DNA of 64,000 bases from Candidatus Buchananbacteria bacterium. GTDB taxonomy: Bacteria; Patescibacteriota; Patescibacteriia; 2-01-FULL-39-33. The position numbers and the translations under genes were made by a program. Under the pieces are notes generated by a model that made no database searches, had not been told where the DNA came from, and worked only from the letters and a program-made list of their open reading frames with translations. Shown here in pieces: positions 22,624 through 49,584 of the stretch (position 1 is its first letter; every line of letters begins with the position of its first letter). The stretch lies in NCBI GenBank assembly GCA_903888345.1, contig CAISTG010000036.1, forward strand, positions 1,988 through 65,987, given 5' to 3'.

Positions 22624-22644
22624 TCTTGCTCATTTTGAACTATC

Positions 22645-26100: not shown

Positions 26101-26109
26101 TTATTTTGA

Positions 26110-26270
26110 CTTTCCACTTTTAACTTTTAACTAACTATTCTAACCTTTTAACTTTTAACTTTTAACTTTCCACTTTTAACTAACTATTCTAACCTTTTAA
26201 CTTTTAACTTTCCACTTTTAACTTTTAACTAACTATTCTAACCTTTCCACTTTCCACTTTTAACTTTTAA
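26110..26270. repeat. Array of 23 in-register heptanucleotide repeats: CTTTTAA (12 copies), CTTTCCA (5 copies) and CTAACTA+TTCTAAC (3 pairs). The higher-order unit is about 49 bp.
   Basis: Read directly from the sequence. Every unit begins in the same 7-nt phase from about 26110 to 26270, between the stop of the third GT2 gene and the ATG at 26285. Confidence 0.85.
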
Positions 26271-26284
26271 CTATTTATATATCT

Positions 26285-29285: not shown

Positions 29286-29378
29286 TTAATAGTAATTTAA
29301 AATATTAAAAAAGCTCCGCGCTGGGTTTGGACCAGGGTGGAGCTTTAAAGAACGGTTTGGGTTGTTGGCGGGGCCGAG

Positions 29379-29588
29379 TTATTCGGCTGCCGGGCGGTAG
29401 ACGACAACGCGCTTTATGTACGGATTGGAGGTTTCATGGACCATGTCTGTGGTGCGGATAATCTCTTCCGCTCCCAGTCTGTTGGTGTCTTGGTCCAGAA
29501 ACTGATATACAGTTTCGATGCTTCTCTGGAAGAGTGAGACCACAAATGTTTTGACGAGTGGCGGCTGTTTCTGTGTTGTGTCTGACAT
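29379..29588 (-). CDS. Small hypothetical protein of 69 aa with a strong Shine-Dalgarno site (cassette a).
   Basis: AAAGGAG lies 8 nt upstream of the ATG. No homology recognised. Locally higher GC content. Confidence 0.5.
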   Translation of the reverse strand: MSDTTQKQPPLVKTFVVSLFQRSIETVYQFLDQDTNRLGAEEIIRTTDMVHETSNPYIKRVVVYRPAAE

Positions 29589-29637
29589 GGATCATACTCC
29601 TTTGTTGGTTGTGATGGTTTTTTGATCGATATTACGC

Positions 29638-29925
29638 TTACGATTTCTTGCCAGGAGTCAGTACCAGAATGAACCCCGGGTCTGCTCCACTGTACCAGTG
29701 GATGCGTAAAGCGAGACCTCCGTAATAGGCATCGTAGAGTTCCTGCATGTCTTCGAGTGACTCGCAGACAAACAGTCGTTCTCCCAGTCCTTGGTCGTAG
29801 CCGCAGATGACCCGATGATCTTTTGATGGTAGCGAAGGCATTTTTGTCGGCCGCCCGCTAATGTCGCAGATTCGCCTCATGTCATCGGCTCCCGCAACGT
29901 TAGTCTTTTTTCCAAGCTCGATCAT
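29638..29925 (-). CDS. Small hypothetical protein of 95 aa with a strong Shine-Dalgarno site (cassette a).
   Basis: AAAGGAG lies 9 nt upstream of the ATG. A perfect consensus promoter lies about 70 nt upstream on the minus strand. Confidence 0.55.
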   Translation of the reverse strand: MIELGKKTNVAGADDMRRICDISGRPTKMPSLPSKDHRVICGYDQGLGERLFVCESLEDMQELYDAYYGGLALRIHWYSGADPGFILVLTPGKKS

Positions 29926-29996
29926 GTTAAGGTGCTCCTTTTCGATGTTGATTTGACCACGAATCCCGTGGCGGAATTTACTAAACAGGTAATATT

Positions 29997-30029
29997 AGAT
30001 TATATTATATATACTATAATATGTCAATA
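29997..30029 (-). promoter_or_regulatory. Consensus sigma70 promoter TTGACA-N17-TATAAT on the minus strand, driving cassette a (approximate coordinates).
   Basis: Minus-strand read is ttgacatattatagtatatataatataat, located about 30 bp upstream of and divergent from the GT4 gene start. Confidence 0.5.
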
Positions 30030-30073
30030 GCAGTTATTATTAAAAATAATTATTTTTGCTAAATTTAGATAAT

Positions 30074-31249
30074 ATGAAAATTGGAATCGACGCTTCACGC
30101 GCCAACAAACCAAATAAAACAGGAACCGAGTGGTATAGCTACCATATTATTGAGGAACTTAAGAAAATCGTTAATCCTGACGATCGGGTTTTGTTGTATA
30201 CCAATTCTGTCCTAACTGGCGGGTTGGAAAATTTACCGACTAATTTTATAGAGAAGGATTTAGCGTGGCCGCCTAAGTATCTTTGGACGCAAATTAGATT
30301 GTGGTGGGAACTAATAGTTTCTCCACCTGATGTGTTATTAGTACCCGCTCATACGATTCCTTTTTTGCCGTTGCCAAAGAAAATTAAAGTTTGTGTTAAT
30401 GTTCATGATGTCGGCTTTAAGCGAAGTCCAGAATTATATAAACCGATTCAGGTTTGGTATCATGATTTGACGATGCGGCGCATTAAGCAACGGGCTGATG
30501 TGATTATTACGATTTCCGAATTTTCGAAAAAGGAAATTATTGAGTTGTATCAAGTGCCAGAAAATAAAATTAAGGTAGTCTATTTGGGATTTGATGCGGA
30601 GAAGTATCATCGCCCTAGTGTCATCCTGAATGAAGCGGAGCGCAATGAAGGATCTCAAGTATTGCCACGGGATCCTTCGCAAGCTCAGGATGACGTATTA
30701 AAAAAATACAATATTAAACAACCTTATCTATTGTATGTTGGCCGATTGGAAAAAAAGAAAAATATCGCCAACATGATTGCGGCCTTTGCTTTAGCCAAAG
30801 AAGAACAACATGATTTGCAGTTGGTTTTAGCTGGTTCTTCCGGTCATCTTTTCGATGAAATTAAAAAAATCATTACTGACAATAAATTAGAAAACGAAGT
30901 TATTATTACTGGTTATGTTGATCAGGAGGATTTGCCGCAACTTTATAGTTCAGCTGAGATATTTCTTTTTCCAACTTTATATGAAGGCTTTGGGTTGCCT
31001 ATTTTAGAGGGCATGGCTTCCGGTGTTCCGGTTATTACTTCTAATTTTGCACCACATACGGAAGTTGGCGGTGATGCGGCTTATTATGCCGATGCCTACT
31101 CGCCGGAAAGTTTAGCTGATGGTATAATTAAGATATTAACAGATGTCGAATTAAAGCAGTCTTTAATTGCCAAAGGATTGGCGCGAGTCAAAGAATTTTC
31201 TTGGCGACAGACAGCCGAGGCAATTTATAAGATTATCTCCATTATTTAG
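30074..31249 (+). CDS. Family-1 (GT4-type) glycosyltransferase.
   Basis: C-terminal EGFGLPILEGMASGVPVI motif of GT-B retaining glycosyltransferases. Length about 390 aa. Confidence 0.8.
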   Translation: MKIGIDASRANKPNKTGTEWYSYHIIEELKKIVNPDDRVLLYTNSVLTGGLENLPTNFIEKDLAWPPKYLWTQIRLWWELIVSPPDVLLVPAHTIPFLPLPKKIKVCVNVHDVGFKRSPELYKPIQVWYHDLTMRRIKQRADVIITISEFSKKEIIELYQVPENKIKVVYLGFDAEKYHRPSVILNEAERNEGSQVLPRDPSQAQDDVLKKYNIKQPYLLYVGRLEKKKNIANMIAAFALAKEEQHDLQLVLAGSSGHLFDEIKKIITDNKLENEVIITGYVDQEDLPQLYSSAEIFLFPTLYEGFGLPILEGMASGVPVITSNFAPHTEVGGDAAYYADAYSPESLADGIIKILTDVELKQSLIAKGLARVKEFSWRQTAEAIYKIISII

Positions 31250-31270
31250 TAGCACCATTTCGAGTATATT

Positions 31271-31346
31271 TTGTCATTCCGGGCTTGACCCGGAATCTCA
31301 ATTCTAGTTATCGAGGTGGAGTCCGGGTCAAGCCCGGAATGACATA
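31271..31346. repeat. Palindromic double-hairpin repeat element, copy 1.
   Basis: tgtcattccgggcttgacccgga, a spacer of about 26 nt, then tccgggtcaagcccggaatgaca. It is a perfect 23-bp inverted repeat, and each arm is itself a hairpin (attccggg / cccggaat). A near-identical copy lies at about 41955-42075. Confidence 0.65.
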
Positions 31347-31368
31347 GTAGTAATTTATTTATTTATAT

Positions 31369-32337
31369 ATGAAACCAATTTTATTATCTGGCATTAAGCC
31401 AACCGCTCGCGTTCATATCGGAAATTACTTTGGAGCGATGAAACGCTTTGTGGAAATGCAATCAGAGTTTCAGAATTTTAATTTCATTGCTGATTATCAC
31501 GCCCTCAATCAAATGTTGGCAACACCGCAAGAAATTAAGCAATTAACTTTGGAATTAACTGCGGCTTATTTAGCGGTCGGATTAGACCCAAAAAAAACTA
31601 TTTTATTTCGCCAATCAGATGTACCGGAAGTGACCGAGCTTAATTGGATTTTCAATTCTTTAATTACCCCATCATATCTACAAAGCGCCCATGCTTATAA
31701 AGACGCAGTCGCCAAGAAAAAAGATGTGAATATGGGATTATTCTGCTATCCGGTACTGATGGCTGCAGATATTTTAATGTATGATTCTAATGTGGTTCCA
31801 GTTGGTAAGGATCAACAGCAACACGTAGAAATCGCTTGCGACTTGGCCAAGAAGTTTAATCACGTTTATAAAAAAGAAGTGTTTAAGTTGCCGAAAGCAG
31901 TTATTTGGGAGGGCGAGAGTTTACCCGGATTTGATGGCGAAAAGATGAGCAAGAGTAAGGGCAACGTGATTGAATTATTTGAAGCCGAAGAATCGATCAA
32001 GAAAAAGGTGATGAGCATCAAGACAGATTCTAAAGGTGTGCAAGATAAGAAAGATCCGGAAGCTGATTTGATTTTTGCTTATCATAAATTATTTTCCGCT
32101 CAGATGATTGACGAGTTGAGATCTAGATATGAAAATGGCGGTATTGGTTATAAAGAGTCCAAAGATATTTTATTTGCTAATATGATGGCTTACTTAAAAC
32201 CAATGCGTGATAAATATTTCAAATTGATTAAAGATGAAAAGTATTTGAATAAGGTTTTGGCTGATGGCGGTAAGCGGGCTCGCAAAGTGGCGGAGGCTAA
32301 AATGACGGCCGTGCGTAAGGTAATTGGAGTTAGATAA
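31369..32337 (+). CDS. trpS: Tryptophan--tRNA ligase.
   Basis: HIGN (HIGH-type) motif near the N-terminus. KMSKS motif. Length 322 aa. Followed by a hairpin and T-run terminator at about 32350-32382. Confidence 0.9.
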   Translation: MKPILLSGIKPTARVHIGNYFGAMKRFVEMQSEFQNFNFIADYHALNQMLATPQEIKQLTLELTAAYLAVGLDPKKTILFRQSDVPEVTELNWIFNSLITPSYLQSAHAYKDAVAKKKDVNMGLFCYPVLMAADILMYDSNVVPVGKDQQQHVEIACDLAKKFNHVYKKEVFKLPKAVIWEGESLPGFDGEKMSKSKGNVIELFEAEESIKKKVMSIKTDSKGVQDKKDPEADLIFAYHKLFSAQMIDELRSRYENGGIGYKESKDILFANMMAYLKPMRDKYFKLIKDEKYLNKVLADGGKRARKVAEAKMTAVRKVIGVR

Positions 32338-32391
32338 ATATATTTAAATAAAAAAAGCCATTTCAATTGAAGTGGCTTTTTTATGTTTGTG

Positions 32392-32428
32392 AAAAAAAAT
32401 CATCCCGCGAGCCAGGGTGGCGCGCGGG
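32392..32428 (-). terminator. Minus-strand rho-independent terminator ending the two-gene small-membrane-protein unit (approximate coordinates).
   Basis: Hairpin cccgcg...cgcggg followed on the minus strand by a run of 8-9 T. Confidence 0.45.
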
Positions 32429-32510
32429 ACGGGAAGGAACAAATATTAAGAATTTTAAGTGACTACAGTTGGATTGAAAACAAGCTTGATCTCGGCATCA
32501 TCGAAAGCCT

Positions 32511-32783
32511 TTATAGCGGCGGCGATTTTTCTTTCCGTTCACTTTTGGGAATGCCGCGGCGTACGCACCAACACTCTGCTTCATAATGAAAACCTTTATC
32601 AATGAAGACGTGATGCACCAGGGCAAAGCTAACCGGTTCTCCGGCAAACATTTTATCCAAAACAGAAGCAATTTTAGCGCGCCTGTTTTTGTCTGCTCTA
32701 TACGCCAAGTAGGCTGAAATAATCATGACTGGCATTATGAAGGCCATAATTAGCAATGCGTTAAGGGTCCATTCAGGTAACAT
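32511..32783 (-). CDS. Small membrane protein of 90 aa (cassette b1, second gene).
   Basis: AAAGGAGAG lies 7-8 nt upstream of the internal ATG at 32783. Transmembrane helix LNALLIMAFIMPVMIISAYLAY. The longer ORF-track extension to 32867 lacks a Shine-Dalgarno site and overlaps the upstream small gene. Confidence 0.5.
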   Translation of the reverse strand: MLPEWTLNALLIMAFIMPVMIISAYLAYRADKNRRAKIASVLDKMFAGEPVSFALVHHVFIDKGFHYEAECWCVRRGIPKSERKEKSPPL

Positions 32784-32806
32784 AGAGACTCTCCTTTGTT
32801 TGTCGT

Positions 32807-32983
32807 TTAGTGTACGGGAACAGTGCTGGCCGCTGCTAGCACAATGAATGTCATCCATAGAGCCCAATATCCGAAATAGCCGATTATCACACGAACACTA
32901 ACTGGAGACTTTCCTAGTCTCCTGGCCATAAATATAAATCCGATAGAAAGGGCAATTGTCATGAGTACGAAGAACAAATACAT
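32807..32983 (-). CDS. Tiny two-transmembrane-helix protein of 58 aa (cassette b1, first gene). It falls below the ORF-track size cut-off.
   Basis: AAAGGAGAT 7 nt upstream of the ATG. Translation is MYLFFVLMTIALSIGFIFMARRLGKSPVSVRVIIGYFGYWALWMTFIVLAAASTVPVH. A TTGACT-N17/18-TAnnnT promoter lies about 40-90 nt upstream. Confidence 0.45.
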   Translation of the reverse strand: MYLFFVLMTIALSIGFIFMARRLGKSPVSVRVIIGYFGYWALWMTFIVLAAASTVPVH

Positions 32984-33082
32984 GTTGCAATCTCCTTTAT
33001 TTGTTTTCGTTAGCTTATATTATTGAGTGGTGGATTTACCAGTCAACTACTAAGAATATCATGATTATTAGTAAAAGTCAAG

Positions 33083-33130
33083 TAAATAAAAATCGTCCAG
33101 CTCCAGTTTTGGTAAACTGAGGCTGGACGG
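33083..33130 (-). terminator. Minus-strand terminator for the secreted/membrane/zinc-ribbon operon (approximate coordinates).
   Basis: Perfect 8-bp stem cgtccagc / gctggacg with a T-run on the minus strand. Confidence 0.5.
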
Positions 33131-33153
33131 GAAAGAACTGATTGCTGAGGGTG

Positions 33154-33408
33154 TCAGCTTCGTAAGTAGGCGATAAACGCGCGCCACATGATTCTGAATG
33201 GGTTGCGCTGGCGACGAGCCTCACGTGCTTTCGTCTGTGTTTCTTGGTCAGTGGCCAGTCCGCAGTTGATGCAGAACATCATGCTGGGCCAAAGTTCATT
33301 GCCGCATGCGCATTTGGGCAGTGGCACTACCTTGTTGCCGCACATTTGGCAGTATTTACCGATTATTGCCGTGTTGCGGCAGTTGGAATTTGAACAAATG
33401 CTGGGCAT
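33154..33408 (-). CDS. Double zinc-ribbon small protein of 84 aa (cassette b2, third gene).
   Basis: CSNSNC..CQMCG and CACG..CINCG (four CxxC pairs), then a basic amphipathic C-terminus. AAAGGAGA Shine-Dalgarno site 8 nt upstream. Confidence 0.6.
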   Translation of the reverse strand: MPSICSNSNCRNTAIIGKYCQMCGNKVVPLPKCACGNELWPSMMFCINCGLATDQETQTKAREARRQRNPFRIMWRAFIAYLRS

Positions 33409-33410
33409 CT

Positions 33411-33872
33411 TTATTCTCCTTTAATCGCGTTCAGCGCTTGGTTAGAACTCGGACAGGTGGGACACTTGTCTCCGGCGAGTTCAAGCGGCTGCCAACCCTT
33501 GGTCAGCAGGGTGGGAATCTTGAAGTACACCGGTTCGTTGGTTTGTTTTGTTGCTTCGGGCAACAGATTGGACCTGACCGTGGCCGTTGAGCCGTCGAAG
33601 GTGACGCTGATTTTTCCCTTGTCGGGAAACTTCAGATCTTCTTTGTTCACAAACACCTTGAAGAGGCTGCTCTGGATCTCTGGGATGGCGGTTGGTGTGG
33701 TGGCAGTGACCGGCGGGTCTACTGCCATCAGGGCATTAATCATGAAAAAGATAAAACAGACAAAAGTAGCGATTGACCAAATGATCCGTTGTGGCTGTCT
33801 GTTCTTCTCGTCAATACATAGGATTAGCCACAACAGATTGACTACGGTCAAGATGATAAAATATATATGCAT
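33411..33872 (-). CDS. Membrane-anchored hypothetical protein of 153 aa (cassette b2, second gene).
   Basis: Two N-terminal transmembrane helices. C-terminal CPTCP motif. GGAGGAGA Shine-Dalgarno site 7 nt upstream. Confidence 0.55.
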   Translation of the reverse strand: MHIYFIILTVVNLLWLILCIDEKNRQPQRIIWSIATFVCFIFFMINALMAVDPPVTATTPTAIPEIQSSLFKVFVNKEDLKFPDKGKISVTFDGSTATVRSNLLPEATKQTNEPVYFKIPTLLTKGWQPLELAGDKCPTCPSSNQALNAIKGE

Positions 33873-33905
33873 GGCGGGATCTCCTCCATCGCGTTCAGCG
33901 ATTGG

Positions 33906-34382
33906 TTAGGACTTTTTGGTCTTGCTGAAGTATGACATATTCAGCACCTTTTTGTCGGCAGTGACTAGAATGACAAAGCATTGGAAGCCGTCTTCGGTGT
34001 CGCGAGACAGGATGAAGCCGGCATCAAGTTTGCCCATGGTTCCTTTAAGCGTCCAGGTCTTGGTGTTGAGTTGTGCGCCCTCGATGTTTTGAATGGTGAC
34101 CGTGATTGTTGTTTCGTCGAGATGTGGCTCCGACAAACCCATTGATGTTTTGATACTGTTGGTGGCGTGGACAATGTCGAGTTGGCCATCACCGTCGTAG
34201 TCAAACATGTTGATGGTATTGTTGGGGACAATCTCGCAGGTGGAGCGATTGAGGCCCACGGTCTGGTGCGGGAAGATCGCCAGCGACTTTTCTTGCGTCG
34301 TTGTGCTCACTTCCTGGGCATGAGCGGCGACTGCCGTCAGCAGAATTGCGAACAGTACGACAACGAAGATAAGGTTTTTCAT
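33906..34382 (-). CDS. Secreted hypothetical protein of 158 aa with a DYDGDGQLD calcium-binding-like loop (cassette b2, first gene).
   Basis: Signal peptide MKNLIFVVVLFAILLTAVAAHA|QE. A DxDxDG loop. Shine-Dalgarno site GGAGAAAAGGA upstream. Confidence 0.6.
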   Translation of the reverse strand: MKNLIFVVVLFAILLTAVAAHAQEVSTTTQEKSLAIFPHQTVGLNRSTCEIVPNNTINMFDYDGDGQLDIVHATNSIKTSMGLSEPHLDETTITVTIQNIEGAQLNTKTWTLKGTMGKLDAGFILSRDTEDGFQCFVILVTADKKVLNMSYFSKTKKS

Positions 34383-34457
34383 GTTTCGATCCTTTTCTCC
34401 GCATAAATGCGGTAGTTGTGAAGGTCCGGTTGATAGCTAACTTTAGCCAATCAATTA

Positions 34458-34490
34458 ATAATTATAGCATACATAGCAAAATTTGTCAAG
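34458..34490 (-). promoter_or_regulatory. Consensus sigma70 promoter TTGACA-N17-TATAAT on the minus strand (copy A of the duplicated ~80-bp module), driving the b2 operon (approximate coordinates).
   Basis: Minus-strand read is ttgacaaattttgctatgtatgctataat. The surrounding ~80 bp is about 90% identical to the 35880-35960 region. Confidence 0.55.
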
Positions 34491-34705
34491 TAGTTATCAA
34501 CAGGTAAAATAAATTTTGTTTAAATTTAGATATAATAATATTAATATTTCGGCGTAATTGAAGTGATTTTCATATTTCACGATTGTACTCCTTATTGTCA
34601 TTGCGAGGGATGCGAACTCAGCCGACCACGGTAATCTCAGTTATCTTGTGACAACTAGCCGGTAAGAGCTTGTTTCGGACGTTCTGCTGAACTACCTCGT
34701 AATGA

Positions 34706-34768
34706 CGAAAATTATAAAAATTAAACAAAAAAGAAGCGCCCCGCGTAGACCGAAGTCCCGCGGGGCGA
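34706..34768 (-). terminator. Minus-strand terminator after the 34787..35083 gene (approximate coordinates).
   Basis: Perfect 9-bp GC stem cgccccgcg / cgcggggcg followed on the minus strand by a long T-rich run. Confidence 0.55.
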
Positions 34769-34786
34769 TATTTGTGCTTTGTTGTG

Positions 34787-35083
34787 TCAGCTGGCCTGCT
34801 CGTAGCGGTCCAGCGTGGCGGCAACGTCGTTTACGGATATGCAGAGTGGCACCTGACGTAGACGGCCTCGGTGCATTCCGAATAGGCCGTTGATTTGTTT
34901 CGTGAATCGTGCCAGATCGACGTTCTCATCTTCGAGGATATCCTGGAGGATGGCGAGCCAATTCACGTGGTTGTATGCCTGACCGTAGTGGCAGGACAGA
35001 CACAGCGAATCACGCGCTCCGCCCTCATTCAACCCCATTGTCTTTCTCAAAGACGTCAGAACGCGTTCTTTTAGTGTGAGCAT
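34787..35083 (-). CDS. Hypothetical protein of 98 aa (cassette c, second gene).
   Basis: GAAGGAAAGGA Shine-Dalgarno site upstream. No homology recognised. It overlaps the spurious ORF-track entries on the opposite strand. Confidence 0.5.
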   Translation of the reverse strand: MLTLKERVLTSLRKTMGLNEGGARDSLCLSCHYGQAYNHVNWLAILQDILEDENVDLARFTKQINGLFGMHRGRLRQVPLCISVNDVAATLDRYEQAS

Positions 35084-35112
35084 GATCAGTAGTCCTTTCC
35101 TTCTCTGGGAGT

Positions 35113-35742
35113 TCAGCCGGCCTTTTTGCTGGGAGTGACGATCAGGTCAAAGCGACCGTCGCCCTTCAGATATTCCTTGATGTCGCGGTCGAAGACTTGG
35201 CAGTAAGCGATGGCATCAGCCATGCGGTTGTCACGGATCAATCCGCAGATCACATCCCTGAGCGTCTTCTGTTGCTGGCGACGCTCCTGTTCCAACTCGG
35301 AGTTGGTGGCCTGTTCTTTCTGCTTCAACTTTTTGGTTGCCTGCTTCAGTTTAACCAGGCCTTTGCTGAGTTTTGCTTCCAGCTCTGCCGAGGTGACTGG
35401 CTCCAGTTCTTCGATCTGACTCTCGAAATCTCCCTGGCTGATGTCGGAGAAGAATCTGAAATCAAGCCCGGAGTAATAGTGGGGCGGCTCAACTCCCACC
35501 CAGTTTACTGGAGAGTTAATCAAACCGCTGGCAAGTAGGGCGTTAACTGATCTGGTGATTTGTTGGCGCTCTACGGTCGACAGGTCACTCGGACGCTCCC
35601 TGGTGCCGCTAATCCTGGGATTCTCGCCAAAACCGTTTTTGAATTGAACGCTGGCGACAAATCCTTTCTGATCAGCGACGATGATGACCGGGATACGGAT
35701 GCCATGGAACTCAGTTACTCGGAAAATCTCGAATTTCTTCAT
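35113..35742 (-). CDS. Hypothetical protein of 209 aa with a central coiled coil (cassette c, first gene).
   Basis: AAGGAA Shine-Dalgarno site. Charged coiled-coil segment EELEPVTSAELEAKLSKGLVKLKQATKKLKQKEQ. A consensus promoter lies about 150 nt upstream. Confidence 0.55.
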   Translation of the reverse strand: MKKFEIFRVTEFHGIRIPVIIVADQKGFVASVQFKNGFGENPRISGTRERPSDLSTVERQQITRSVNALLASGLINSPVNWVGVEPPHYYSGLDFRFFSDISQGDFESQIEELEPVTSAELEAKLSKGLVKLKQATKKLKQKEQATNSELEQERRQQQKTLRDVICGLIRDNRMADAIAYCQVFDRDIKEYLKGDGRFDLIVTPSKKAG

Positions 35743-35886
35743 GATTGAAATTCCTTTCCCACTTCGTGGGTTTTCTTGGTTGTGATTGTTTGCTTTACTA
35801 AAATTCCCTTATTTTAAGGCAATGAAATAGATAACTACTGCATCGCCCTAGAATCAGGGAACTTAGTTTGTTAAAGTTCTAATATA

Positions 35887-35919
35887 TAATTATAGCATAC
35901 ATAGTAAAATTTGTCAAGT
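35887..35919 (-). promoter_or_regulatory. Consensus sigma70 promoter TTGACA-N17-TATAAT on the minus strand (copy B of the duplicated module), driving cassette c (approximate coordinates).
   Basis: Minus-strand read is ttgacaaattttactatgtatgctataat. Confidence 0.55.
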
Positions 35920-35957
35920 AGTTATCAACAGGCTAAAATTATTTTTGTTTAAATTTA

Positions 35958-35991
35958 AATAAAAAAACCACTCAGGTTTAATGTGAGTGGC
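35958..35991 (-). terminator. Minus-strand terminator ending cassette d (approximate coordinates).
   Basis: Stem ccactca / tgagtgg, then a run of 7 T on the minus strand. Confidence 0.5.
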
Positions 35992-36014
35992 TAAATTGGT
36001 GTTCAAGATTGATT

Positions 36015-36446
36015 CTAACGCCAAGGATCAAAGTCTAAACGAATATCGCGGATTTTATTAATATTTTCCATGGTAATTATCGTGTTTTGAGCGGTTTGAT
36101 CATAAAATTCCTTGGTCAGATAGATCGTCCAGGGCCTAGGGTTGCCGGGCTTGGAGCCATCAAGGAAATTAAAGTCTGACCCCATGGCTTTGAGCATCGC
36201 GCAGACGTAATTCGGGAAAAATCCGGTTTGGAAGGTTTCTACCGTTGTTGAATCAGATATTCCCCAAATTTGGTGTCGTTCAAAGCCCTCGAAAGTCACG
36301 CTGACTGGAATAGTCAATTTTTTTGACTGATAGATTAGCCAGATTAAGGTTTTTCTAAATATTTCTGGGTACTCCGAAGTATTGGCAATCAAATATTGGA
36401 GTGCTGAGATTTGTGTATCTGTGATCACGGGAGTTGGCTTTTCCAT
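36015..36446 (-). CDS. Hypothetical protein of 143 aa, paralog of the upstream gene (cassette d).
   Basis: Shares Q(I)xAL.Y(I)..., WLI.QS..LT.PV.V and INxIR..LDFD blocks with the 36453..37001 product. Confidence 0.55.
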   Translation of the reverse strand: MEKPTPVITDTQISALQYLIANTSEYPEIFRKTLIWLIYQSKKLTIPVSVTFEGFERHQIWGISDSTTVETFQTGFFPNYVCAMLKAMGSDFNFLDGSKPGNPRPWTIYLTKEFYDQTAQNTIITMENINKIRDIRLDFDPWR

Positions 36447-36452
36447 GTGTTG

Positions 36453-37001
36453 TTACACCTTTGGTTGTTTGCGTTTCTTAACCCAAGAAACACTTTCTTT
36501 GGGTTCAGGGAGATCGTGAGAACCGCCAAAATAGCTGGCATCCGCTAACCGGATAGCATTTATTTTCTCGAGATCAAGTCTCAGGCGCGTCGCTTTATCA
36601 TCATAGAGATGGGGCGAGAGCCAGGCCGTGTAGCCGTGGAAGTTATTAAGTTCTCCCTGCTCATCGTATATTCCGCCATGAACCGAAAATCGGAAAGTCG
36701 TGCTAGCTACAGTCAGCAAGGAGTTAAGGTGGGTGGTGTTACCACCGCTGATCATGTCATGAATACTGTTAAGCAGTTGTTCGCACAACTCTATCTGGCC
36801 CTTGGGTGTGCCGGGGCAATTTTTCGGAATACTGACACAGACTGGCCGCGTTAGGTTATTCGACTGATCAATTAGCCAGAAACAAAGTCGCTTGCCGAAA
36901 TTGCTGGCATCTTTTGATCCAGCGATGTAAATTTTCAGCGCCTCAATTTGTCGGTCAGATAGGGGTCTTGATTTAGCGAGTCGGGTCGTGGATGGGGCCA
37001 T
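36453..37001 (-). CDS. Hypothetical protein of 182 aa, tandem paralog (cassette d, first gene).
   Basis: Internal ATG at 37001 has a CAGGAGAA Shine-Dalgarno site 7 nt upstream. The ORF-track start at 37076 lies inside the promoter -35 element and is unlikely. Confidence 0.55.
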   Translation of the reverse strand: MAPSTTRLAKSRPLSDRQIEALKIYIAGSKDASNFGKRLCFWLIDQSNNLTRPVCVSIPKNCPGTPKGQIELCEQLLNSIHDMISGGNTTHLNSLLTVASTTFRFSVHGGIYDEQGELNNFHGYTAWLSPHLYDDKATRLRLDLEKINAIRLADASYFGGSHDLPEPKESVSWVKKRKQPKV

Positions 37002-37045
37002 GATACGGTTCTCCTGTTGGTTGATTTTAAAGGTGCGTCGATAGG

Positions 37046-37078
37046 TGAGTCTAACATAACGAATAGGGGTTGTCAATG
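37046..37078 (-). promoter_or_regulatory. Sigma70-like promoter TTGACA-N17-TAGACT on the minus strand, driving cassette d (approximate coordinates).
   Basis: Minus-strand read is ttgacaacccctattcgttatgttagact. It overlaps the divergent holB upstream region. Confidence 0.45.
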
Positions 37079-37117
37079 GTTGCTAAGGAGGTCGGTTTTG
37101 TGTTAATATTTACTCAT

Positions 37118-38149
37118 ATGACAGGTGAAAATTGGGAGGAAAAGCATAAGTTTTTATGGGAGGTTTGCGGGCACGAAAAAATCGTTTCCTATTTAAAGTC
37201 GGCTATTGCTACAGACCGGGTTAATCATGCTTATATCTTCGCCGGTCCGAGTGGTTTAGGCAAGGCTACCGTGGCCGATCGCTTTATTAAGACTCTTTAT
37301 TGCCAAGGTCAAGGCGAGTATAAGCCCTGTGGCCAGTGTCCGGCTTGTCGCCAAGTCGAAGCGCATACGCATCCTGATGTTTATCGTGTCGGTCGGGTCA
37401 TTAATGAAAAAACCGGAAAATTTTATCGCGAAATCGTGATCGATCAAATGCGTGACCTAAAAATGAAGTTATCACAGGGCACGTTGCTCTCGTCATGGAA
37501 GATCGCGATTATTGAGGATGCTGATTATTTGAATGTTAATGCCGCCAATTCTTTGTTAAAAGTATTAGAAGAACCGACGCGTAAAACTGTCATTATTTTG
37601 TTGGTTAGTGATTTATCACAAATGCTCAAGACGATTACTTCTCGAGTTCAGGTTTTGAATTTTTTGCCAGTCAGCCACGATGAGATTAAGGATTATTTAT
37701 TGAGCCAAGAAATTAGTAATGATAAGGCGCAACGCATCGCTAATTTATCGTTAGGCAAACCGCGGCTCGCCATTAAGATGATTGAGGATAACGATTATTA
37801 TAATACGGTGACGACGGACATCAAGAGTTTTGGTGAAATTTTTGAACTTGATATGTTCTCACGCTTAAAGAAAATGGATAGCCTGCTGGACTGGGATAAG
37901 GATGAGAGTATAAATATCTCGCGTCTTAATCTACTCTTCGATCATTGGCTGATGGGTTTGCGTGATTTAATAATGCTCAGCACTAATAATTCGCGTTTAA
38001 TGGCGATTGTCGCGGGTGAGCGATCGTTAGCGGCGGGTACGGCCAACCGGTTATTGCGGGTGTATGATTTGATTTCTACAGCTCGTGGTTTATTGGACCG
38101 GAATATTAGCAGTAAAAACGTTTTAGAAAATTTAATTATAAATATATGA
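37118..38149 (+). CDS. holB: DNA polymerase III delta-prime subunit.
   Basis: HAYIFAGPSGLGKAT P-loop. Zinc module C..GQC.AC. SRVQ sensor. Start ambiguous: ATG at 37118, or GTG at 37103 which is preceded by AAGGAGG. Confidence 0.8.
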   Translation: MTGENWEEKHKFLWEVCGHEKIVSYLKSAIATDRVNHAYIFAGPSGLGKATVADRFIKTLYCQGQGEYKPCGQCPACRQVEAHTHPDVYRVGRVINEKTGKFYREIVIDQMRDLKMKLSQGTLLSSWKIAIIEDADYLNVNAANSLLKVLEEPTRKTVIILLVSDLSQMLKTITSRVQVLNFLPVSHDEIKDYLLSQEISNDKAQRIANLSLGKPRLAIKMIEDNDYYNTVTTDIKSFGEIFELDMFSRLKKMDSLLDWDKDESINISRLNLLFDHWLMGLRDLIMLSTNNSRLMAIVAGERSLAAGTANRLLRVYDLISTARGLLDRNISSKNVLENLIINI

Positions 38150-39222: not shown

Positions 39223-39227
39223 AATAT

Positions 39228-39779: not shown

Positions 39780-40100
39780 GAAATGTTTTTTCCACTTCTT
39801 GTAGCCAAATCGCCTGCTGGCGATATCAGGGTTGGCTATATTCTTTTGGAATCAGCTCCGCTGAAGCTTATTTAACTATCCTTCGCTTCGCTACGGACTG
39901 AATTAGAAGAAGTGGAGTAAGAATCGCGACCTGATGAAAATCATGGCTGAATTTTCAGCTACGCTCACTAAACCAAAAACGCTGTCGCTGTTTTGGTTTG
40001 CCTAATGGCCGTTCGCTCCCACTGAAAATCAGCACAATCCGCCGCGGCGGATTCAAACGGTCGCACCCGGGGCAGGGAAATAAAAAATTTATTTTTAAAT

Positions 40101-41258
40101 ATGTTAATTACTATTGTTTTGTTTTTACTGGTTCTCTCTTTGCTAGTTTTCGTCCATGAGCTGGGCCACTTTTTAACGGCTCGGTTTTTTGGGGTGAAGT
40201 GCGAAGAGTTTGGGATGGGAATTCCGCCACGCGGCGTCGGTTTGCAAAAGCATCAGGGCAAATGGCGGTTGATTTGGGGTAATCGCGAGAATGTTCCCGG
40301 CGAGTCGATCATTTATTCACTTAATTGGATTCCGATTGGTGGGTTTGTTAAGATTAAGGGCGAAAATGGCGAAATGGAAAATGAAACTGATAGTTTTGGT
40401 TACAAACCAGTTTGGCAGCGCAATTTGATTTTAGCAGCTGGCGTAACCATGAATGTTTTATTGACGATCGTTTTATTGATGATTGGTTTTGCAATTGGGA
40501 TGCCTAGTTCGACTTCGAATTTAGAAGGAGGCATTATTGTTTCGAAACAGCAAGTGCAGATCGCTCAAGTAATTGAGAAGTCTCCGGCTCAGGCCGCTGA
40601 TTTACGAGTTGGTGATATCGTTTTGCAGGTTGATGGCCAAGAAATTAATAATAGCGAGCAATTACGAACAATTGTAATTGCCAAAGAAAATCAAGCAGTA
40701 AATTTTGTTATTGAGCGCAGCAACGATCAAATAGAAAAAACAATTACTCCAATTAAGATAGGAGAAAATATTGGAGTTGGCGTGGCGATTGCTGATTTAG
40801 GTACCGTGCGCTATCCGATTCATTTGGCTTTGTGGCAAGCGCTTAAAGCGACTTGGGGCTGGTTTATGATGATGATCTTAGCGATTGTCGCCTTAGTTAA
40901 ACAATTGTTTGGTGGACCAGGTGTAGGCGTGGAATTCGCTGGGCCGGTTGGCATCGCCGTTCTAACGGGTCAAGCGGCTAAATTAGGCTGGGTATATTTA
41001 TTGCAGTTTGCCGCCTTGTTATCACTTAACTTGGCGATCATTAATATCTTGCCGTTTCCCGCACTTGATGGCGGTCGCATTTTATTTTTAACAATCGGCA
41101 AAGTCCGGGGCAAAATGATTAGCTCTAAGTGGGAAAATGCCTCACATAATATCGGCTTTATTCTACTAATGGTATTGATTCTCTTTATCACTTATCGTGA
41201 TTTAGTAAAATACGGCGCGAAGATTTTGTCGGTCTTAATGCGGGCCGTTGGATTATAA
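40101..41258 (+). CDS. rseP: RseP-like site-2 (M50) zinc metalloprotease with a PDZ domain.
   Basis: HELGHF HExxH motif in the first transmembrane helix. PDZ domain. LDGG motif in the C-terminal transmembrane region. Confidence 0.85.
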   Translation: MLITIVLFLLVLSLLVFVHELGHFLTARFFGVKCEEFGMGIPPRGVGLQKHQGKWRLIWGNRENVPGESIIYSLNWIPIGGFVKIKGENGEMENETDSFGYKPVWQRNLILAAGVTMNVLLTIVLLMIGFAIGMPSSTSNLEGGIIVSKQQVQIAQVIEKSPAQAADLRVGDIVLQVDGQEINNSEQLRTIVIAKENQAVNFVIERSNDQIEKTITPIKIGENIGVGVAIADLGTVRYPIHLALWQALKATWGWFMMMILAIVALVKQLFGGPGVGVEFAGPVGIAVLTGQAAKLGWVYLLQFAALLSLNLAIINILPFPALDGGRILFLTIGKVRGKMISSKWENASHNIGFILLMVLILFITYRDLVKYGAKILSVLMRAVGL

Positions 41259-41288
41259 AAAAACCTGACGAGATAACTCGGCAGGTTG
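41256..41288. terminator. Bidirectional hairpin terminator between rseP (+) and the minus-strand cassette e (approximate coordinates).
   Basis: Stem cctgacgag / ctcggcagg flanked by an A-run on one side and a T-run on the other. Confidence 0.45.
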
Positions 41289-41299
41289 AAGGATCAAAA

Positions 41300-41578
41300 T
41301 TAAGCTTTAGAGTCTGGCGTCCGTTCAAAGACGACTAGAACAGATATTGAGGCGGTGGCAGTATCGGGCAAAACAGTAGTGTCATGAATTAGCCAGCCGT
41401 TTTCTTCAGCTTCCGTATTAATATTGTCGTGAATGTTGGTTTTGGTGCCAGTAATTACTTTGGAAAAACGTAACGGAACCAGCTTATTAACCGCCGCTTT
41501 GTTACCCCCGCCCCAATTGCGGTCTCTACTATTAGTGGCAACAGGATGTTTCAACTCAATAAAAGCCGTCTCGGCCAT
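41300..41578 (-). CDS. Hypothetical protein of 92 aa (cassette e, second gene).
   Basis: AAAGGAGAT Shine-Dalgarno site 6 nt upstream of the ATG. Confidence 0.5.
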   Translation of the reverse strand: MAETAFIELKHPVATNSRDRNWGGGNKAAVNKLVPLRFSKVITGTKTNIHDNINTEAEENGWLIHDTTVLPDTATASISVLVVFERTPDSKA

Positions 41579-41602
41579 TGGTATCTCCTTTTGGTAGGGC
41601 TA

Positions 41603-41857
41603 TCAGCCGGTGGGTTCAAGAATGTTGAGAAATTTTTTCAGTTCGTTGAGAAAATCCATCCCCATTTGCCGTATGGCGGAGATAGCGATATTGGGAAACA
41701 TTTCGCGTAGCAGAGAATACATTTCTATTTCCGCTCGGTCTTCGGCATGGTACTGACGTTGCTCAGCATCAGCGGCGATAATCTTTGGTTCGAAATAATC
41801 GCAAATCCTTCTGGCAATCGCAATCTGTTCCCAGCCAATCAGTTGTCTCTCAGCCAT
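41603..41857 (-). CDS. Hypothetical protein of 84 aa (cassette e, first gene).
   Basis: AAGGAGA Shine-Dalgarno site 7 nt upstream. A putative promoter TTGACA-N17-TAAGCT lies about 60 nt upstream on the minus strand, at about 41916-41944. Confidence 0.5.
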   Translation of the reverse strand: MAERQLIGWEQIAIARRICDYFEPKIIAADAEQRQYHAEDRAEIEMYSLLREMFPNIAISAIRQMGMDFLNELKKFLNILEPTG

Positions 41858-41954
41858 GATTCGTCTCCTTGTTGGTTGTTAAAACTTAGTGTAAAGGGCT
41901 TAAACTTAATTACTTAGCTTAGCAGTAAATCAATAAAATGTCAATACGTGACAA

Positions 41955-42075
41955 GTCATTCCGCAACGCAGCAGTGTCATTCCGGACTTGATCCGGAATC
42001 TCGTTTCGACTCAATTCCTCTAGGCTCAGATTCCGGGTCAAGCCCGGAATGACAGCTGAAACGGCTGGAATGACG
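41955..42075. repeat. Palindromic double-hairpin repeat element, copy 2, with extra GTCATTCC / GGAATGAC half-sites.
   Basis: tgtcattccggacttgatccggaatc, a spacer, then gattccgggtcaagcccggaatgaca. Additional copies of gtcattccg and ggaatgacg flank the core. Confidence 0.6.
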
Positions 42076-42112
42076 AGAAGAGTGTATTTAATATTAATTC
42101 TAATTAAATTGT

Positions 42113-42472
42113 ATGAAAATATCAGTCATTAATAATTTAGATCCGGTAATGGTGTTGCGTCGCGCTGGCTATGGCCAAGTAATGGATCGACGAGCAACGG
42201 AAATTAGTTATAATCGCCGGTTAGGTTCTGGCTTTTATCCGCGTTTTCATGCGTATATCAACGGAACGGTCATCAATCTTCATCTAGACCAGAAGCAGGC
42301 AAGCTATGAGGGTTCTAGCGCTCATAGCGGCGAGTATGACGGCGATACGGTGGAGACTGAGGGACAGCGGATTATTGAGTCAATGACGCGGTTAGCTAGT
42401 GAAAATCAGACTGCAGAAAACACTCCGGAACCGACAGAAAAGAGCGGCTTTTGGGGTAGAATGTTCAGCTAG
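42113..42472 (+). CDS. Hypothetical protein of 119 aa.
   Basis: ORF with an acidic, disordered C-terminus. No Shine-Dalgarno site. No homology recognised. Confidence 0.45.
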   Translation: MKISVINNLDPVMVLRRAGYGQVMDRRATEISYNRRLGSGFYPRFHAYINGTVINLHLDQKQASYEGSSAHSGEYDGDTVETEGQRIIESMTRLASENQTAENTPEPTEKSGFWGRMFS

Positions 42473-42529
42473 ACCGGCGCTTTGACATTAATCATTAAAA
42501 AGACTAAAATACCCTCATAAATTCAATCT

Positions 42530-43756
42530 ATGCGCCAATCAAAATTATTCCCTAAAACCATTAAAATCGCCCCTAAAGACGCGACTAGTGCTAGCCATAA
42601 ATATTTGGTTCAAGCCGGTTTTGTCGACATGCTTCAGGCCGGAGCTTATACTTATTTGCCTTTAGCCTGGCGCGTGATTACTAATATTAATAAAATCGTT
42701 CGTGAAGAAATGAACGCCGAAGGCGGACAAGAGTTATTAATGCCAGCTTTGCAATCGAGAAGTATCTGGGACGAGACAGGACGCTGGGACGGATCGCTGA
42801 GCGATGTGATGTATCAGTTTAAGGATGCTAGTGGTAAGGACCTAGGACTCGCCGCTACACACGAAGAAGTGGTTTATGATTTGATGCGCAAGTTTATTAA
42901 TTCGTATAAAGATTTGCCATTAGCAGTATATCAAATTCAGAATAAATTTCGGGCGGAATTACGACCGAAGGGCGGCTTAATGCGCGGTCGGGAGTTTATG
43001 ATGAAAGACTTGTATAGTTTTCATTTGACGCTGGAAGATTTAAATGGCTATTATCAAAAAATGATCGCCGCTTACTTGAGAGTTTATGGCCGTTGTGGCT
43101 TAGACGCTAAAGTAGTAGAAGCTTCTGGTGGTGTCTTCACCGATAATTTTTCGCATGAATTTCAAATAGTCTCGGATGCCGGAGAAGATCGAATTCTGTA
43201 TTGCGACGGTTGCGACTTTGCGCAAAATACTGAAATTTCCAAATTAAAGGCAGGTGATAAATGTCCGAAGTGTGGTTTGCCGATTAAAGAGGGTAAGAGT
43301 ATTGAAGTTGGAAACATTTTTAATTTCGGTGAAAAGTATGCCAAGGACATGAACGGTTATGTTAATGATGCTCAGGGTAACAAACAACCAATCTGGATGG
43401 CATCTTACGGTATTGGCATTTCTCGTTTGGTGGCGACGATCGTCGAGAAGTATCATGATGAGAAGGGAATGATTTGGCCAGAAGCGGTAGCCCCATTTAA
43501 AATTCATTTGATTTCAATTAAGAAGGATGAGGCCGCGGAAAAAATTTATGATCAGTTAGTAGCGGCCGGCGTGGAAGTTTTATTTGATGATCGTGATCTT
43601 TCGGCTGGTGCAAAATTTGCTGATGCTGATTTGATCGGTTTGCCGTGGCGCGTCGTTGTCAGTGAAAAAACTGGTGATCAGGTTGAAGTCAAAAAACGCC
43701 ATCAAACCGAGAGTAGCTTAATAGCGTTAACTGAATTGTTAGATCAATTAAAATAA
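42530..43756 (+). CDS. proS: Proline--tRNA ligase, short bacterial-type form lacking the INS editing domain.
   Basis: Class II motifs and a bacterial-type N-terminus. Only 408 aa. A CDGC...CPKC zinc-ribbon insert sits where the editing domain normally lies. Confidence 0.85.
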   Translation: MRQSKLFPKTIKIAPKDATSASHKYLVQAGFVDMLQAGAYTYLPLAWRVITNINKIVREEMNAEGGQELLMPALQSRSIWDETGRWDGSLSDVMYQFKDASGKDLGLAATHEEVVYDLMRKFINSYKDLPLAVYQIQNKFRAELRPKGGLMRGREFMMKDLYSFHLTLEDLNGYYQKMIAAYLRVYGRCGLDAKVVEASGGVFTDNFSHEFQIVSDAGEDRILYCDGCDFAQNTEISKLKAGDKCPKCGLPIKEGKSIEVGNIFNFGEKYAKDMNGYVNDAQGNKQPIWMASYGIGISRLVATIVEKYHDEKGMIWPEAVAPFKIHLISIKKDEAAEKIYDQLVAAGVEVLFDDRDLSAGAKFADADLIGLPWRVVVSEKTGDQVEVKKRHQTESSLIALTELLDQLK

Positions 43757-43778
43757 AAAACCAGTCGAGTGACTGGTG
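43748..43778 (-). terminator. Hairpin terminator for the minus-strand 43804..44130 gene; also follows proS (approximate coordinates).
   Basis: Stem accagtc / gactggt with a run of 10 A on the + side, which is a T-run on the minus strand. Confidence 0.5.
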
Positions 43779-43803
43779 GTGATTAAGGTGCGTTAGAGTA
43801 ATT

Positions 43804-44130
43804 TTATGCTTCGTCTTCCGGTAGATAGACTTGTCCTTGCTTGCAGAGCGACTGGCCTTGAAAGATCGATTTTTCTTTGTGCCGGAAATAGCCGTCATTG
43901 CAGCCGTTTTGGGCCTTCATCATTCGGCGAAATTTCTTGCTGCGTCGGCTGCGGCTCCAAGGCTTGGTTGATTGCCCATTAAACTTGTGATTTTCGCGAA
44001 CGAGCCTGAAGCTGCCGTCTGGTTGGCTGACTTTTCGGAAGACGCGTTCACCAATAATTACAATTGGAGAGTCGCCATAACCGCGACCGGAGAGGTGGTG
44101 TAGCTTTTTCTTTGTCAACGTTTGAGGCAT
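43804..44130 (-). CDS. Basic hypothetical protein of 108 aa (cassette f).
   Basis: AAGGAGT Shine-Dalgarno site 6 nt upstream. The promoter TTGACA-N17-TAGATT on the minus strand at about 44174-44202 lies within 10 bp of the mreB start codon. Confidence 0.5.
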   Translation of the reverse strand: MPQTLTKKKLHHLSGRGYGDSPIVIIGERVFRKVSQPDGSFRLVRENHKFNGQSTKPWSRSRRSKKFRRMMKAQNGCNDGYFRHKEKSIFQGQSLCKQGQVYLPEDEA

Positions 44131-44210
44131 GCAGTACTCCTTGGTGGTTGAAACAACTAAAATTCGTTATTACAATCTAGCAGATAACTTATATATTGTC
44201 AATAGCTATT

Positions 44211-49094: not shown

Positions 49095-49116
49095 ACAACC
49101 AATAGGAGGTTTGCTC

Positions 49117-49521: not shown

Positions 49522-49584
49522 TTAAATCAAAAAACCGTCCGACTCTAGTTAAGACTAACTAGTAGCGGACGGTCTTTTTTATTT

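Follow-up and report, generated by a model that had tools for sequence, protein, structure and literature searches.

Shine–Dalgarno-led mini-operons at variably occupied junctions of a Patescibacterium chromosome whose backbone genes largely lack Shine–Dalgarno sites

What are small genes with strong expression signals doing between the housekeeping genes of a bacterium whose other genes almost all lack a Shine–Dalgarno (SD) sequence? The question arises from 64,000 nucleotides (nt) of a Candidatus Buchananbacteria assembly (GCA_903888345.1, contig CAISTG010000036.1, positions 1,988 to 65,987 of the forward strand; "the window" below), in which an earlier note, made from the sequence alone, had picked out compact minus-strand cassettes and read them as horizontally acquired or selfish units. 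We consider it probable that these units are mini-operons of the flexible genome, led by SD sites, that are present, absent, duplicated or swapped in their cargo at the same junctions amid an SD-less, syntenic backbone. They share an anatomy, differ from the backbone in their SD sites, occupy their junctions variably among relatives, re-use modules, diverge as mosaics and encode proteins without detectable relatives. Presence and absence, duplicated modules and mosaic divergence together indicate turnover by recombination, which would act through homology in the conserved flanks or modules.

The SD contrast was computed as the predicted SD:anti-SD duplex energy over the 20 nt 5′ of each start codon. 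The backbone set comprised the 51 large non-overlapping open reading frames (ORFs) of the window, 49 of them on the + strand, and the cassette set the 16 small ORFs named in the earlier note. Backbone ORFs averaged -0.2 kcal/mol, and 49 of the 51 had no SD; every cassette ORF had one at correct spacing, with energies of -5.9 to -11.4 and a mean of -8.3 kcal/mol (16/16 versus 2/51, Fisher exact P = 1.4e-13). The earlier description of SD-free host genes beside blocks with an SD before every ORF was therefore accurate. The two backbone ORFs with a real SD are 22261 (pilin-like) and 56126 (DUF5671). A blind scan of the whole window for an SD motif, a start codon and an ORF of at least 30 amino acids (aa) recovered the cassette ORFs, these two genes and one GVG-type holB start at 37100, the other matches lying within larger genes or in short ORFs, which we judged to be chance. 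It missed ORF 36015, whose weaker SD (AAGGTG) is outside the motif list. The start contexts differ as well: backbone leaders have 18.5% GC, with 76% carrying T at -1 and 60% carrying A at +4, and cassette leaders have 45% GC, with C at -1 in 75%. Since the minus-strand backbone gene gyrB has no SD and the + strand carries three SD-led genes, the SD tracks gene class and not strand.

The same division is seen in relatives. There the first gene of every minus-strand unit has an AAGGAG-type SD and a TTGACA-N17 promoter, and both SDs and GC-rich leaders are missing from the backbone genes; the SD-free, A/U-rich backbone leaders were read over the window and the loci of five relatives. Because the SD spacing is kept in at least eight genomes that have diverged to silent-site saturation, the conservation implies that the host ribosome would read the cassette sites. 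The signals could also be explained without any lateral exchange, if the units were vertically inherited, lineage-specific small genes that are often lost, with SD and promoter marking a high-expression class. Such a class does not account for the lack of an SD in pilA (15952), which probably encodes the major pilin, and in further backbone genes that are likely to be well expressed.

The window holds at least nine SD-led units and one extra SD-led gene (56126). The units, named with the junction that they occupy where one is defined, are as follows; "perfect" denotes TTGACA-N17-TATAAT.

22170–22671, + strand: unit H (LigA/GT2), with TTGACA-N17-TATATA promoter, SD acaaggag and hairpin plus T-run; its cargo, 22261, is a 120-aa pilin-like protein with an N-terminal methylation motif.
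29305–30027, minus strand: unit A (MreB/GT4), with perfect promoter at 30027–29999, leader hairpin and terminator at about 29313–29344; ORFs 29638–29925 (95 aa) and 29379–29588 (69 aa), AAAGGAG before each.
32392–33081, minus strand: unit C4 (TrpS/HolB), with TTGACT-type promoter (33081 or 33046) and terminator at 32392–32433; ORFs 32807–32983 (58 aa) and 32511–32783 (90 aa, true ATG start), two small membrane proteins.
33083–34530, minus strand: unit C3 (TrpS/HolB), with a promoter-leader module (perfect promoter at 34489–34461, two leader hairpins) and terminator at 33093–33130; ORFs 33906–34382 (secreted), 33411–33872 (membrane, two transmembrane helices) and 33154–33408 (double zinc ribbon).
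33424–33449 and 33888–33913: the junction repeat of unit C3, 26 nt with a hairpin, before two SDs.
34723–35955, minus strand: unit C2 (TrpS/HolB), with a second promoter-leader copy (perfect promoter at 35917–35889) and terminator at 34733–34768; ORFs 35113–35742 (209 aa) and 34787–35083 (98 aa).
35961–37076, minus strand: unit C1 (TrpS/HolB), with TTGACA-N17-TAGACT at 37076–37048, 42 bp from the holB ATG at 37118, and terminator at 35968–35991; ORFs 36453–37001 (182 aa) and 36015–36446 (143 aa), tandem paralogues.
41257–41944, minus strand: unit D (RseP/ORF119), with TTGACA-N17-TAAGCT promoter and terminator at 41264–41298; ORFs 41603–41857 (84 aa) and 41300–41578 (92 aa).
43755–44202, minus strand: unit E (ProS/MreB), with TTGACA-N17-TAGATT, 9 nt from the mreB ATG at 44211, and terminator at 43760–43778; ORF 43804–44130, a basic 108-aa protein.
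49095–49584, + strand: unit F (GreA/GyrB), an SD-led 134-aa ORF (49117–49521) 17 nt after greA, with no promoter of its own.
51830–52330, + strand: unit G, an SD-led 124-aa gene (51913–52287) with a hairpin terminator.

On the minus strand, TTGACA-N16-18-TAnnnT occurs nine times in 64 kb, and six of the matches, all with N17 spacing (44202, 41944, 37076, 35917, 34489 and 30027), lie directly upstream of a cassette. The three perfect promoters reported in the earlier note are the only perfect sites in the 64 kb and all belong to these six; its statement that every block opens with TTGACA holds for six of the seven, the block 32511–32983 having TTGACT. Consensus-type promoters also precede host genes (42482, 48531). 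The SD sites (2/51 in the backbone) and the manner of promoter and terminator are particular to the units. A hairpin with T-run follows every unit, as had been proposed; in a terminator scan the hairpins of eight units had energies between -8 and -25 kcal/mol. The C4 terminator (32392–32433) is outside that scan and was read from the sequence. The strong terminator of unit F is common to the convergent gyrB. The earlier note had given 49117 and 51913 the style of the cassettes, which is true of their strong SD and their terminator, but 49117 lacks a promoter and is carried on the transcript of greA. Full self-containment applies to seven or eight of the units, unit F depending on greA.

The units sit at operon boundaries of the backbone, mostly in the opposite orientation. 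The seven blocks first described are indeed on the minus strand, but the + strand unit H had been overlooked. What lies close to a host start is the -35 hexamer and not, as originally stated (about 25–60 bp), the first gene of each cassette; the hexamer is 9–47 bp from the host start codon in units A, C1 and E only, and in unit D it lies about 170 bp away, with repeat elements between. In C2, C3 and A, and at both copies of the 26-nt repeat, the SD is directly preceded by a small hairpin. A self-contained unit has a sigma-70 promoter close to consensus (in many cases with an extended -10), a short leader, an SD for each ORF and an intrinsic terminator, and by these predicted promoters and terminators the units qualify as autonomous transcription units. 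Such a unit would start and stop its own transcription, recruit ribosomes by itself and act as an insulated expression module, with no transcriptional read-through between unit and backbone in either direction; given signals of its own, its GC-richer, structured mRNA could be expressed wherever it lands. At unit E the promoter (-35 at 44202–44197) has a -10 that overlaps the -10 of a + strand promoter-like site (44148–44176) that would serve mreB, and the unit E and mreB promoters may compete for RNA polymerase.

The surroundings of the units are those of a cellular chromosome. The window is from a Patescibacterium of the Parcubacteria group, near Ca. Buchananbacteria, and homologues of its HolB carry the names Ca. 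Buchananbacteria, Falkowbacteria or "Patescibacteria group". Pfam identified MreB, a GT4 glycosyltransferase, TrpS, HolB, a BNR protein, Frr, RseP, ProS, a second MreB, GreA, GyrB, a ClpB-like ATPase, PilM, ScpA/B, TpiA, Fba and a class-II aminoacyl-tRNA synthetase (Asp/Lys/Asn-type) in the backbone, and the window also has matches to DUF4012, DUF5671 and DUF5654, families that we take to be typical of the candidate phyla radiation. A HolB search of genome contigs returned an unrelated Sphingobacterium locus alone. Positions 32356–35038 were recovered at 99.9–100% identity in independent assemblies from several samples, and this agreement rules out a chimeric assembly over that stretch. Scans with Rfam and for tRNAs found no match and no rRNA in the window, so the conserved leaders are not known riboswitches and there is no tRNA integration site.

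To what extent do the same junctions hold units in other genomes? We compared the neighbourhoods of eleven HolB homologues, with HolB identities from 80% down to 50%. The conserved gene order runs LigA, three GT2 genes, DUF4012, MreB, GT4, TrpS, HolB, BNR, Frr, RseP, ORF119, ProS, MreB, MreC, an unnamed 172-aa gene, PBP2, GreA and, on the minus strand, GyrB. TrpS/HolB, which here holds units C1–C4 in 4.7 kb, is filled in L010 (80%), L021 (56%), the P0020 contig (54%) and L023 (50%). It is without a cassette in six others: L011 (67%), L013, L015, L020 and L022, where the two genes are direct neighbours, and L019, where there is a palindromic repeat element only. In L010, unit C3 abuts holB, and C1 and C2 are absent. 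RseP/ORF119 (unit D) is filled in L013, L014, L019, L020, L023 and the P0020 contig, six of eight relatives, by genes that bear the same signals; in L015 and L022 it is empty. At MreB/GT4 (unit A), a minus-strand gene was found in one of seven relatives, the P0020 contig, and none in L013, L015, L019, L020, L022 and L023. The remaining junctions are filled only here: ProS/MreB (unit E) is empty in all seven relatives that cover it, GreA/GyrB (unit F) is direct in both (L013 and L015), and LigA/GT2 (unit H) is empty in all three (L015, L019 and L022).

In L015 all six of these junctions (MreB/GT4, TrpS/HolB, RseP/ORF119, ProS/MreB, GreA/GyrB and LigA/GT2) are direct, as they are in L022 apart from GreA/GyrB, which is outside coverage. 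These two relatives (both 52%) have no small minus-strand gene at the junctions covered, where gaps are 2–25 bp or the genes overlap, and they thereby supply empty sites of the kind that the earlier note had suggested looking for, at MreB/GT4, TrpS/HolB, RseP/ORF119 and ProS/MreB. ORF 42113, treated as a host gene in that note, is a conserved backbone gene, 62–69% identical among relatives. No counterpart of units C1, C2, C4, E, F and H occurs in the compared relatives, nor of unit A except in one possible case. The junctions are flexible genomic islets, or hot spots, in that the same junction is variably filled between conserved core flanks. Inheritance with frequent loss fits this distribution poorly, both in the units without counterparts and in TrpS/HolB, whose occupancy is patchy with respect to HolB identity (filled at 80, 56, 54 and 50%, empty at 67, 53, 52, 52 and 52%).

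Two further differences in gene content were seen in the same neighbourhood. An SD-less + strand gene of 115–117 aa follows MreB in L013 (7321–7674), L023 (3604–3951) and the P0020 contig; it is 60% identical between L013 and L023 and is missing from the window, where that junction holds unit A. L020 has a 7-kb + strand island (1827–9011) between GT4 and TrpS, which carries a nucleotidyltransferase/HEPN-like pair, an 897-aa AAA_5 (AAA+ ATPase) protein, a 657-aa VWA protein and a diversity-generating retroelement (bAvd and reverse transcriptase). The island genes are without AAGGAG-type SDs and mostly have backbone-like AU-rich leaders, so not all accessory DNA of the clade is of the cassette type.

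The units also share parts. The promoter-leader of C3 (34383–34545, a module of about 110 nt) is duplicated before unit C2, with a 75-nt repeat 84% identical, and alignment shows it again beside holB in L010 and L021; a leader of like style at TrpS/HolB in L023 was compared by eye only. In L021 the module heads an unrelated 47-aa ORF, and the terminator of that cassette is 85% identical to the C4 terminator. The 47-aa ORF has GWYRC...GLWP.[FW]N.KTGETR in common with the second gene of the L023 cassette (L023_9019), a likeness seen by eye and without an alignment statistic, and the first gene of the L023 cassette (L023_9318) is homologous to the C3 membrane protein of L010 (L010_278; E = 3.5e-10). 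The first gene of unit D is related to L023_13898 (E = 4e-4) and L014_4392 (z = 4.4). The shared promoter-leader and terminator in front of differing cargo mark TrpS/HolB as a single, old expression platform that bears mix-and-match cargo across lineages.

Comparison with L010, the closest relative, revealed that the parts of C3 have diverged to different degrees. HolB is 80% identical at the aa level with a synonymous divergence (dS) of about 1.7, and the zinc-ribbon gene is 89% identical with a dS of 0.40; the promoter-leader is about 90% identical over 154 nt, and the secreted and membrane proteins share only 41% and 33% of their residues. At four-fold sites, taken at conserved residues, identity was 0.80 for the zinc-ribbon gene (95% confidence interval 0.66–0.91), 0.41 for HolB (0.32–0.50), 0.42 for the secreted protein and 0.36 for the membrane protein. 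As the zinc-ribbon gene and the leader show less silent divergence than HolB, the ends of C3 are younger than the backbone; its middle is at least as old as the backbone and fast-evolving. The pattern indicates that divergent alleles have probably been exchanged by recombination in the conserved ends. Conserved ends around a hypervariable middle are the pattern of surface and receptor loci under diversifying selection. The two copies of the 26-nt repeat in C3 are 92% identical, form a 5-bp hairpin (ATCGC-TGAAC-GCGAT) and stand immediately 5′ of the SDs of two consecutive genes; a diverged version is conserved in L010. The repeat may serve to process or stabilise the mRNA, or may mark a junction of recombination.

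These comparisons bear directly on vertical inheritance. A silent-site identity of the zinc-ribbon gene and promoter-leader about twice that of HolB speaks against descent without exchange, and we think it rather unlikely that the units are simply lineage-specific genes subject to loss. That explanation nevertheless accounts for part of the data. With counterparts of unit D in six of the eight relatives, and the C3 leader and membrane protein traceable to 50% HolB identity, these elements are old residents and not recent arrivals, so that of the earlier proposal of horizontally acquired, non-core genes the accessory nature of the units and the partial lateral exchange of C3, seen at silent sites, were borne out, but not a recent arrival of units D and C3. 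In composition, which the earlier note had suggested comparing, the cassette genes do stand apart, with GC 0.48 and GC at third codon positions (GC3) 0.53 versus 0.41 and 0.39 in the backbone; GC3 of units D, C1 and C4, however, barely exceeds that of the backbone, in keeping with vertical inheritance, and GC3 of unit G (0.34) is not above it. The cassette ORFs look coding, with purine bias at codon position 1 and GC lowest at position 2.

Several observations weigh against the flexible mini-operons that we favour, or limit what can be concluded about them. Most of the relatives are distant (HolB 50–56%), and an empty site among them cannot separate gain here from loss there. HolB is the sole backbone gene in the silent-site comparison with L010, and selection on the silent sites of the small zinc-ribbon gene is an alternative to recombination. 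The + strand GC and AT skew of the cassette regions equals that of the flanking chromosome, which fits long residence better than recent import and again agrees with vertical inheritance. SD-like motifs inside backbone genes are not significantly avoided relative to synonymous-codon shuffles (z -1.5 to +1.5) and so give no independent sign of an active anti-SD, and an anti-SD motif has been reported in only 48% of Parcubacteria (PMC9297842). AlphaFold2 models of the paralogue pair and of the secreted protein had pLDDT of 49 and 52, too poor to use.

The cargo proteins resist classification. Pfam (E up to 0.1) gave a weak zinc-ribbon match for 33154 and DUF7768, a nucleoside 2-deoxyribosyltransferase-like family, for 51913 of unit G, and nothing else; PHROGs matched the DUF7768 protein alone, to two phage-protein families, and PADLOC (cut-off E 0.01) gave one chance-level match (E = 0.008, no stretch passing alone). 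An exhaustive phmmer search of 1.84 billion representative proteins with the 209-aa protein (35113) returned only the query, as did the homologue search with the zinc-ribbon protein, and a profile search with the 36015/36453 paralogues returned the two proteins only. The ten cargo proteins that were checked are all singletons or pairs at 90% clustering. The tandem paralogy of 36015 and 36453 (27% identity) was recognised in the earlier note; it went undetected in BLASTP and was confirmed by Smith–Waterman alignment with shuffles (z = 16). A C-terminal motif common to 29638 and 35113 was marginal (z = 4.2) and is not claimed. For the family of the second gene of unit D, neither a profile search of the PDB nor a Pfam search of its members found a match; a DUF4177-like pattern was seen by eye and is unconfirmed. 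Inspection of the sequences shows a Sec signal peptide and a DxDGDG loop in 33906 and, in 33411, two transmembrane helices together with a conserved C-terminal domain (...PVYFKIP...GWQ.LE...KCPTCP). Unit C4 encodes small membrane proteins in both of its ORFs (32807 and 32511), 33154 combines a double zinc ribbon with an amphipathic tail, and the cargo outside C3 and C4 consists of small soluble proteins. Judged from their sequences, the cargo proteins appear to be small, clade-restricted and fast-evolving, and the envelope cargo of C3 and C4 might, quite tentatively, serve strain-specific surface, host-contact or phage-contact functions.

Could the units instead be selfish or defensive two-gene modules (toxin–antitoxin, immunity or anti-phage) in permissive intergenic sites? 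The earlier note had raised this possibility, and five units are indeed two-gene operons of small proteins with their own promoter, turnover at fixed hot spots is high, and L020 has its nucleotidyltransferase/HEPN-like pair, of toxin–antitoxin type, and the retroelement at a neighbouring junction. Patchily distributed two-gene operons of small proteins are also what type II toxin–antitoxin systems have in common with several of the units. Yet no toxin, antitoxin or defence family was matched in Pfam or PADLOC, PHROGs lent no support either, and none of the DNA-binding domains usual in antitoxins was detected. Four units (E, F, G and H) consist of one gene each, and the five envelope or secreted proteins, those of C3 and C4 among them, make a poor fit to classical toxin–antitoxin pairs. 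We regard such modules as distinctly improbable.

An origin in phages was weighed in the same way, either as remnants of prophages or integrated elements or as morons brought by phages of this lineage. Morons are independent promoter–ORF–terminator units between conserved genes of lambdoid phages, and the likeness is considerable: the units have their own promoter and terminator, are wedged between conserved genes, deviate in composition, are absent from relatives and carry accessory cargo of unassigned function. Proteins without relatives are typical of phage accessory genes, and the DUF7768 protein matches PHROG families. Unlike morons, however, the units lie in a cellular housekeeping chromosome, mostly antiparallel to it, and have a distinct translation-initiation signal. 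Their flanks are MreB, GT4, TrpS, HolB, Frr, RseP, ProS, GreA and GyrB, with no phage genes, and they are spread over at least eight separate junctions of this backbone. Pfam and PHROGs found no integrase, transposase, capsid, terminase or other phage gene in the 64 kb, and there are no att-like direct repeats. Searches with tblastn of 15 concatenated cargo proteins against 50,697 GenBank phage and 72,556 PLSDB plasmid records, and pattern scans of IMG/VR viral contigs with three cargo proteins, gave no match; a promoter 20-mer had three chance matches in metagenome contigs, in unrelated contexts, and none in viral contigs. A phage origin therefore seems to us very improbable, and the suggestion that the units are selfish or mobile in themselves found no support, there being no integrase, transposase, att-like or terminal repeat in the window.

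Two further systems resemble the SD-led mini-operons in part. Integron cassettes are likewise small exchangeable units in tandem at one locus, as are the four at TrpS/HolB, with a conserved promoter module before variable cargo; here, each unit has its own promoter and terminator, the units are at many loci, there is no integrase or other recombinase domain in the window, and attC, attI or a shared inverted repeat at the cassette ends was not found. Flexible islets of pangenomes agree in that the same few junctions are variably filled while the core flanks are kept, the content being replaced presumably by recombination in the flanks. The units differ from these in their size (0.4–1.5 kb), in having no mobility genes, in the re-use of promoter-leader and terminator modules and in a uniform design for strong expression.

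The junctions and their neighbours hold other repeated elements and SD-like sites, one of which separates units C2 and C3:

34597–34706, no strand assigned: palindromic element (GTCATTACGAGG...CCTCGCAATGAC) resembling miniature inverted-repeat transposable elements (MITE) or repetitive extragenic palindromes (REP).

It belongs to a MITE/REP-like family (GTCATTCCGGGCTTGACCCGGAATC... and variants) with further copies at 31267–31349, 41960–42090 and 30610–30699, as well as in L019 (9793–10000) and L021 (about 100–330). These elements fill the same intergenic junctions as the cassettes, and one copy lies in frame within the GT4 gene, where it adds about 18–20 residues that are absent from the GT4 of L013, L015 and L020. 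Directly 5′ of the DUF4012 gene start at 26285, positions 26104–26289 consist of arrayed 7-nt units (CTTTTAA / CTTTCCA), whose higher-order period is 14/21 nt; the array could be a phase-variable or regulatory tract. The strongest SD of the window (aaaaggaggg, -12.3 kcal/mol) precedes the gene for the DUF5671 membrane protein 56126 (56100–57181, + strand). At the junction with unit C1, an AAGGAGG has arisen 8 nt 5′ of an in-frame GTG of holB (37085–37102), and holB of L010 and L011 has no SD at the matching position. A conserved TTAATAT just 5′ of the ATG at 37118 suggests that holB would normally be made from a leaderless or very short-leader mRNA.

One known case shows how a few genes may keep an SD in a genome that otherwise does without it. 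In the Bacteroidia type of ribosome the anti-SD is sequestered by bS21, bS18 and bS6, and rpsU carries an extended SD. Ribosomes of Bacteroidia thus disregard SD sites, the exception being that of rpsU, which bS21-free ribosomes read (PMC9976891, PMC7797042). As there, nearly all genes here are SD-free with A/U-rich leaders and a small defined set keeps a strong SD; here, however, the SD-led set consists of accessory genes without relatives and not of a ribosomal protein gene, the phylum is another, and the comparison is one of leaders as read in a window that contains none of rpsU, rpsR and rpsF. We entertain, as a decidedly doubtful extension, that the SD is a private translation channel for a regulon of flexible mini-operons in an SD-independent clade, in which the availability of the anti-SD would switch all accessory units together and leave housekeeping untouched, because backbone mRNAs do not use the anti-SD, with the promoter-leader and terminator modules as a recombinase-free landing pad for cargo exchange. 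By analogy with Flavobacterium, the switch could be a subpopulation of ribosomes lacking bS21, or else a growth-phase or host-contact signal.

A large share of bacterial diversity belongs to the Patescibacteria, whose strain-variable genes and translation initiation have hardly been studied. To our knowledge, a separate translation-initiation signal that marks the flexible genes of an SD-less Patescibacterium has not been described. As a rule for annotation, the SD flags flexible genes in this clade, with near-perfect specificity in the window, and could be used genome-wide to find the accessory pool of uncultured organisms. Conservation of SD spacing in eight or more genomes implies that an SD-less lineage of Parcubacteria would still read such sites, which matters for reports that half of the group has lost the anti-SD. 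The promoter-leader module would be a ready-made strong expression element for a group with almost no genetic tools. For the biology of the organism, the locus offers a set of probably strongly expressed secreted and membrane proteins, whose hypervariable middles and conserved ends make them candidates for host-attachment or phage-receptor functions in an episymbiont.

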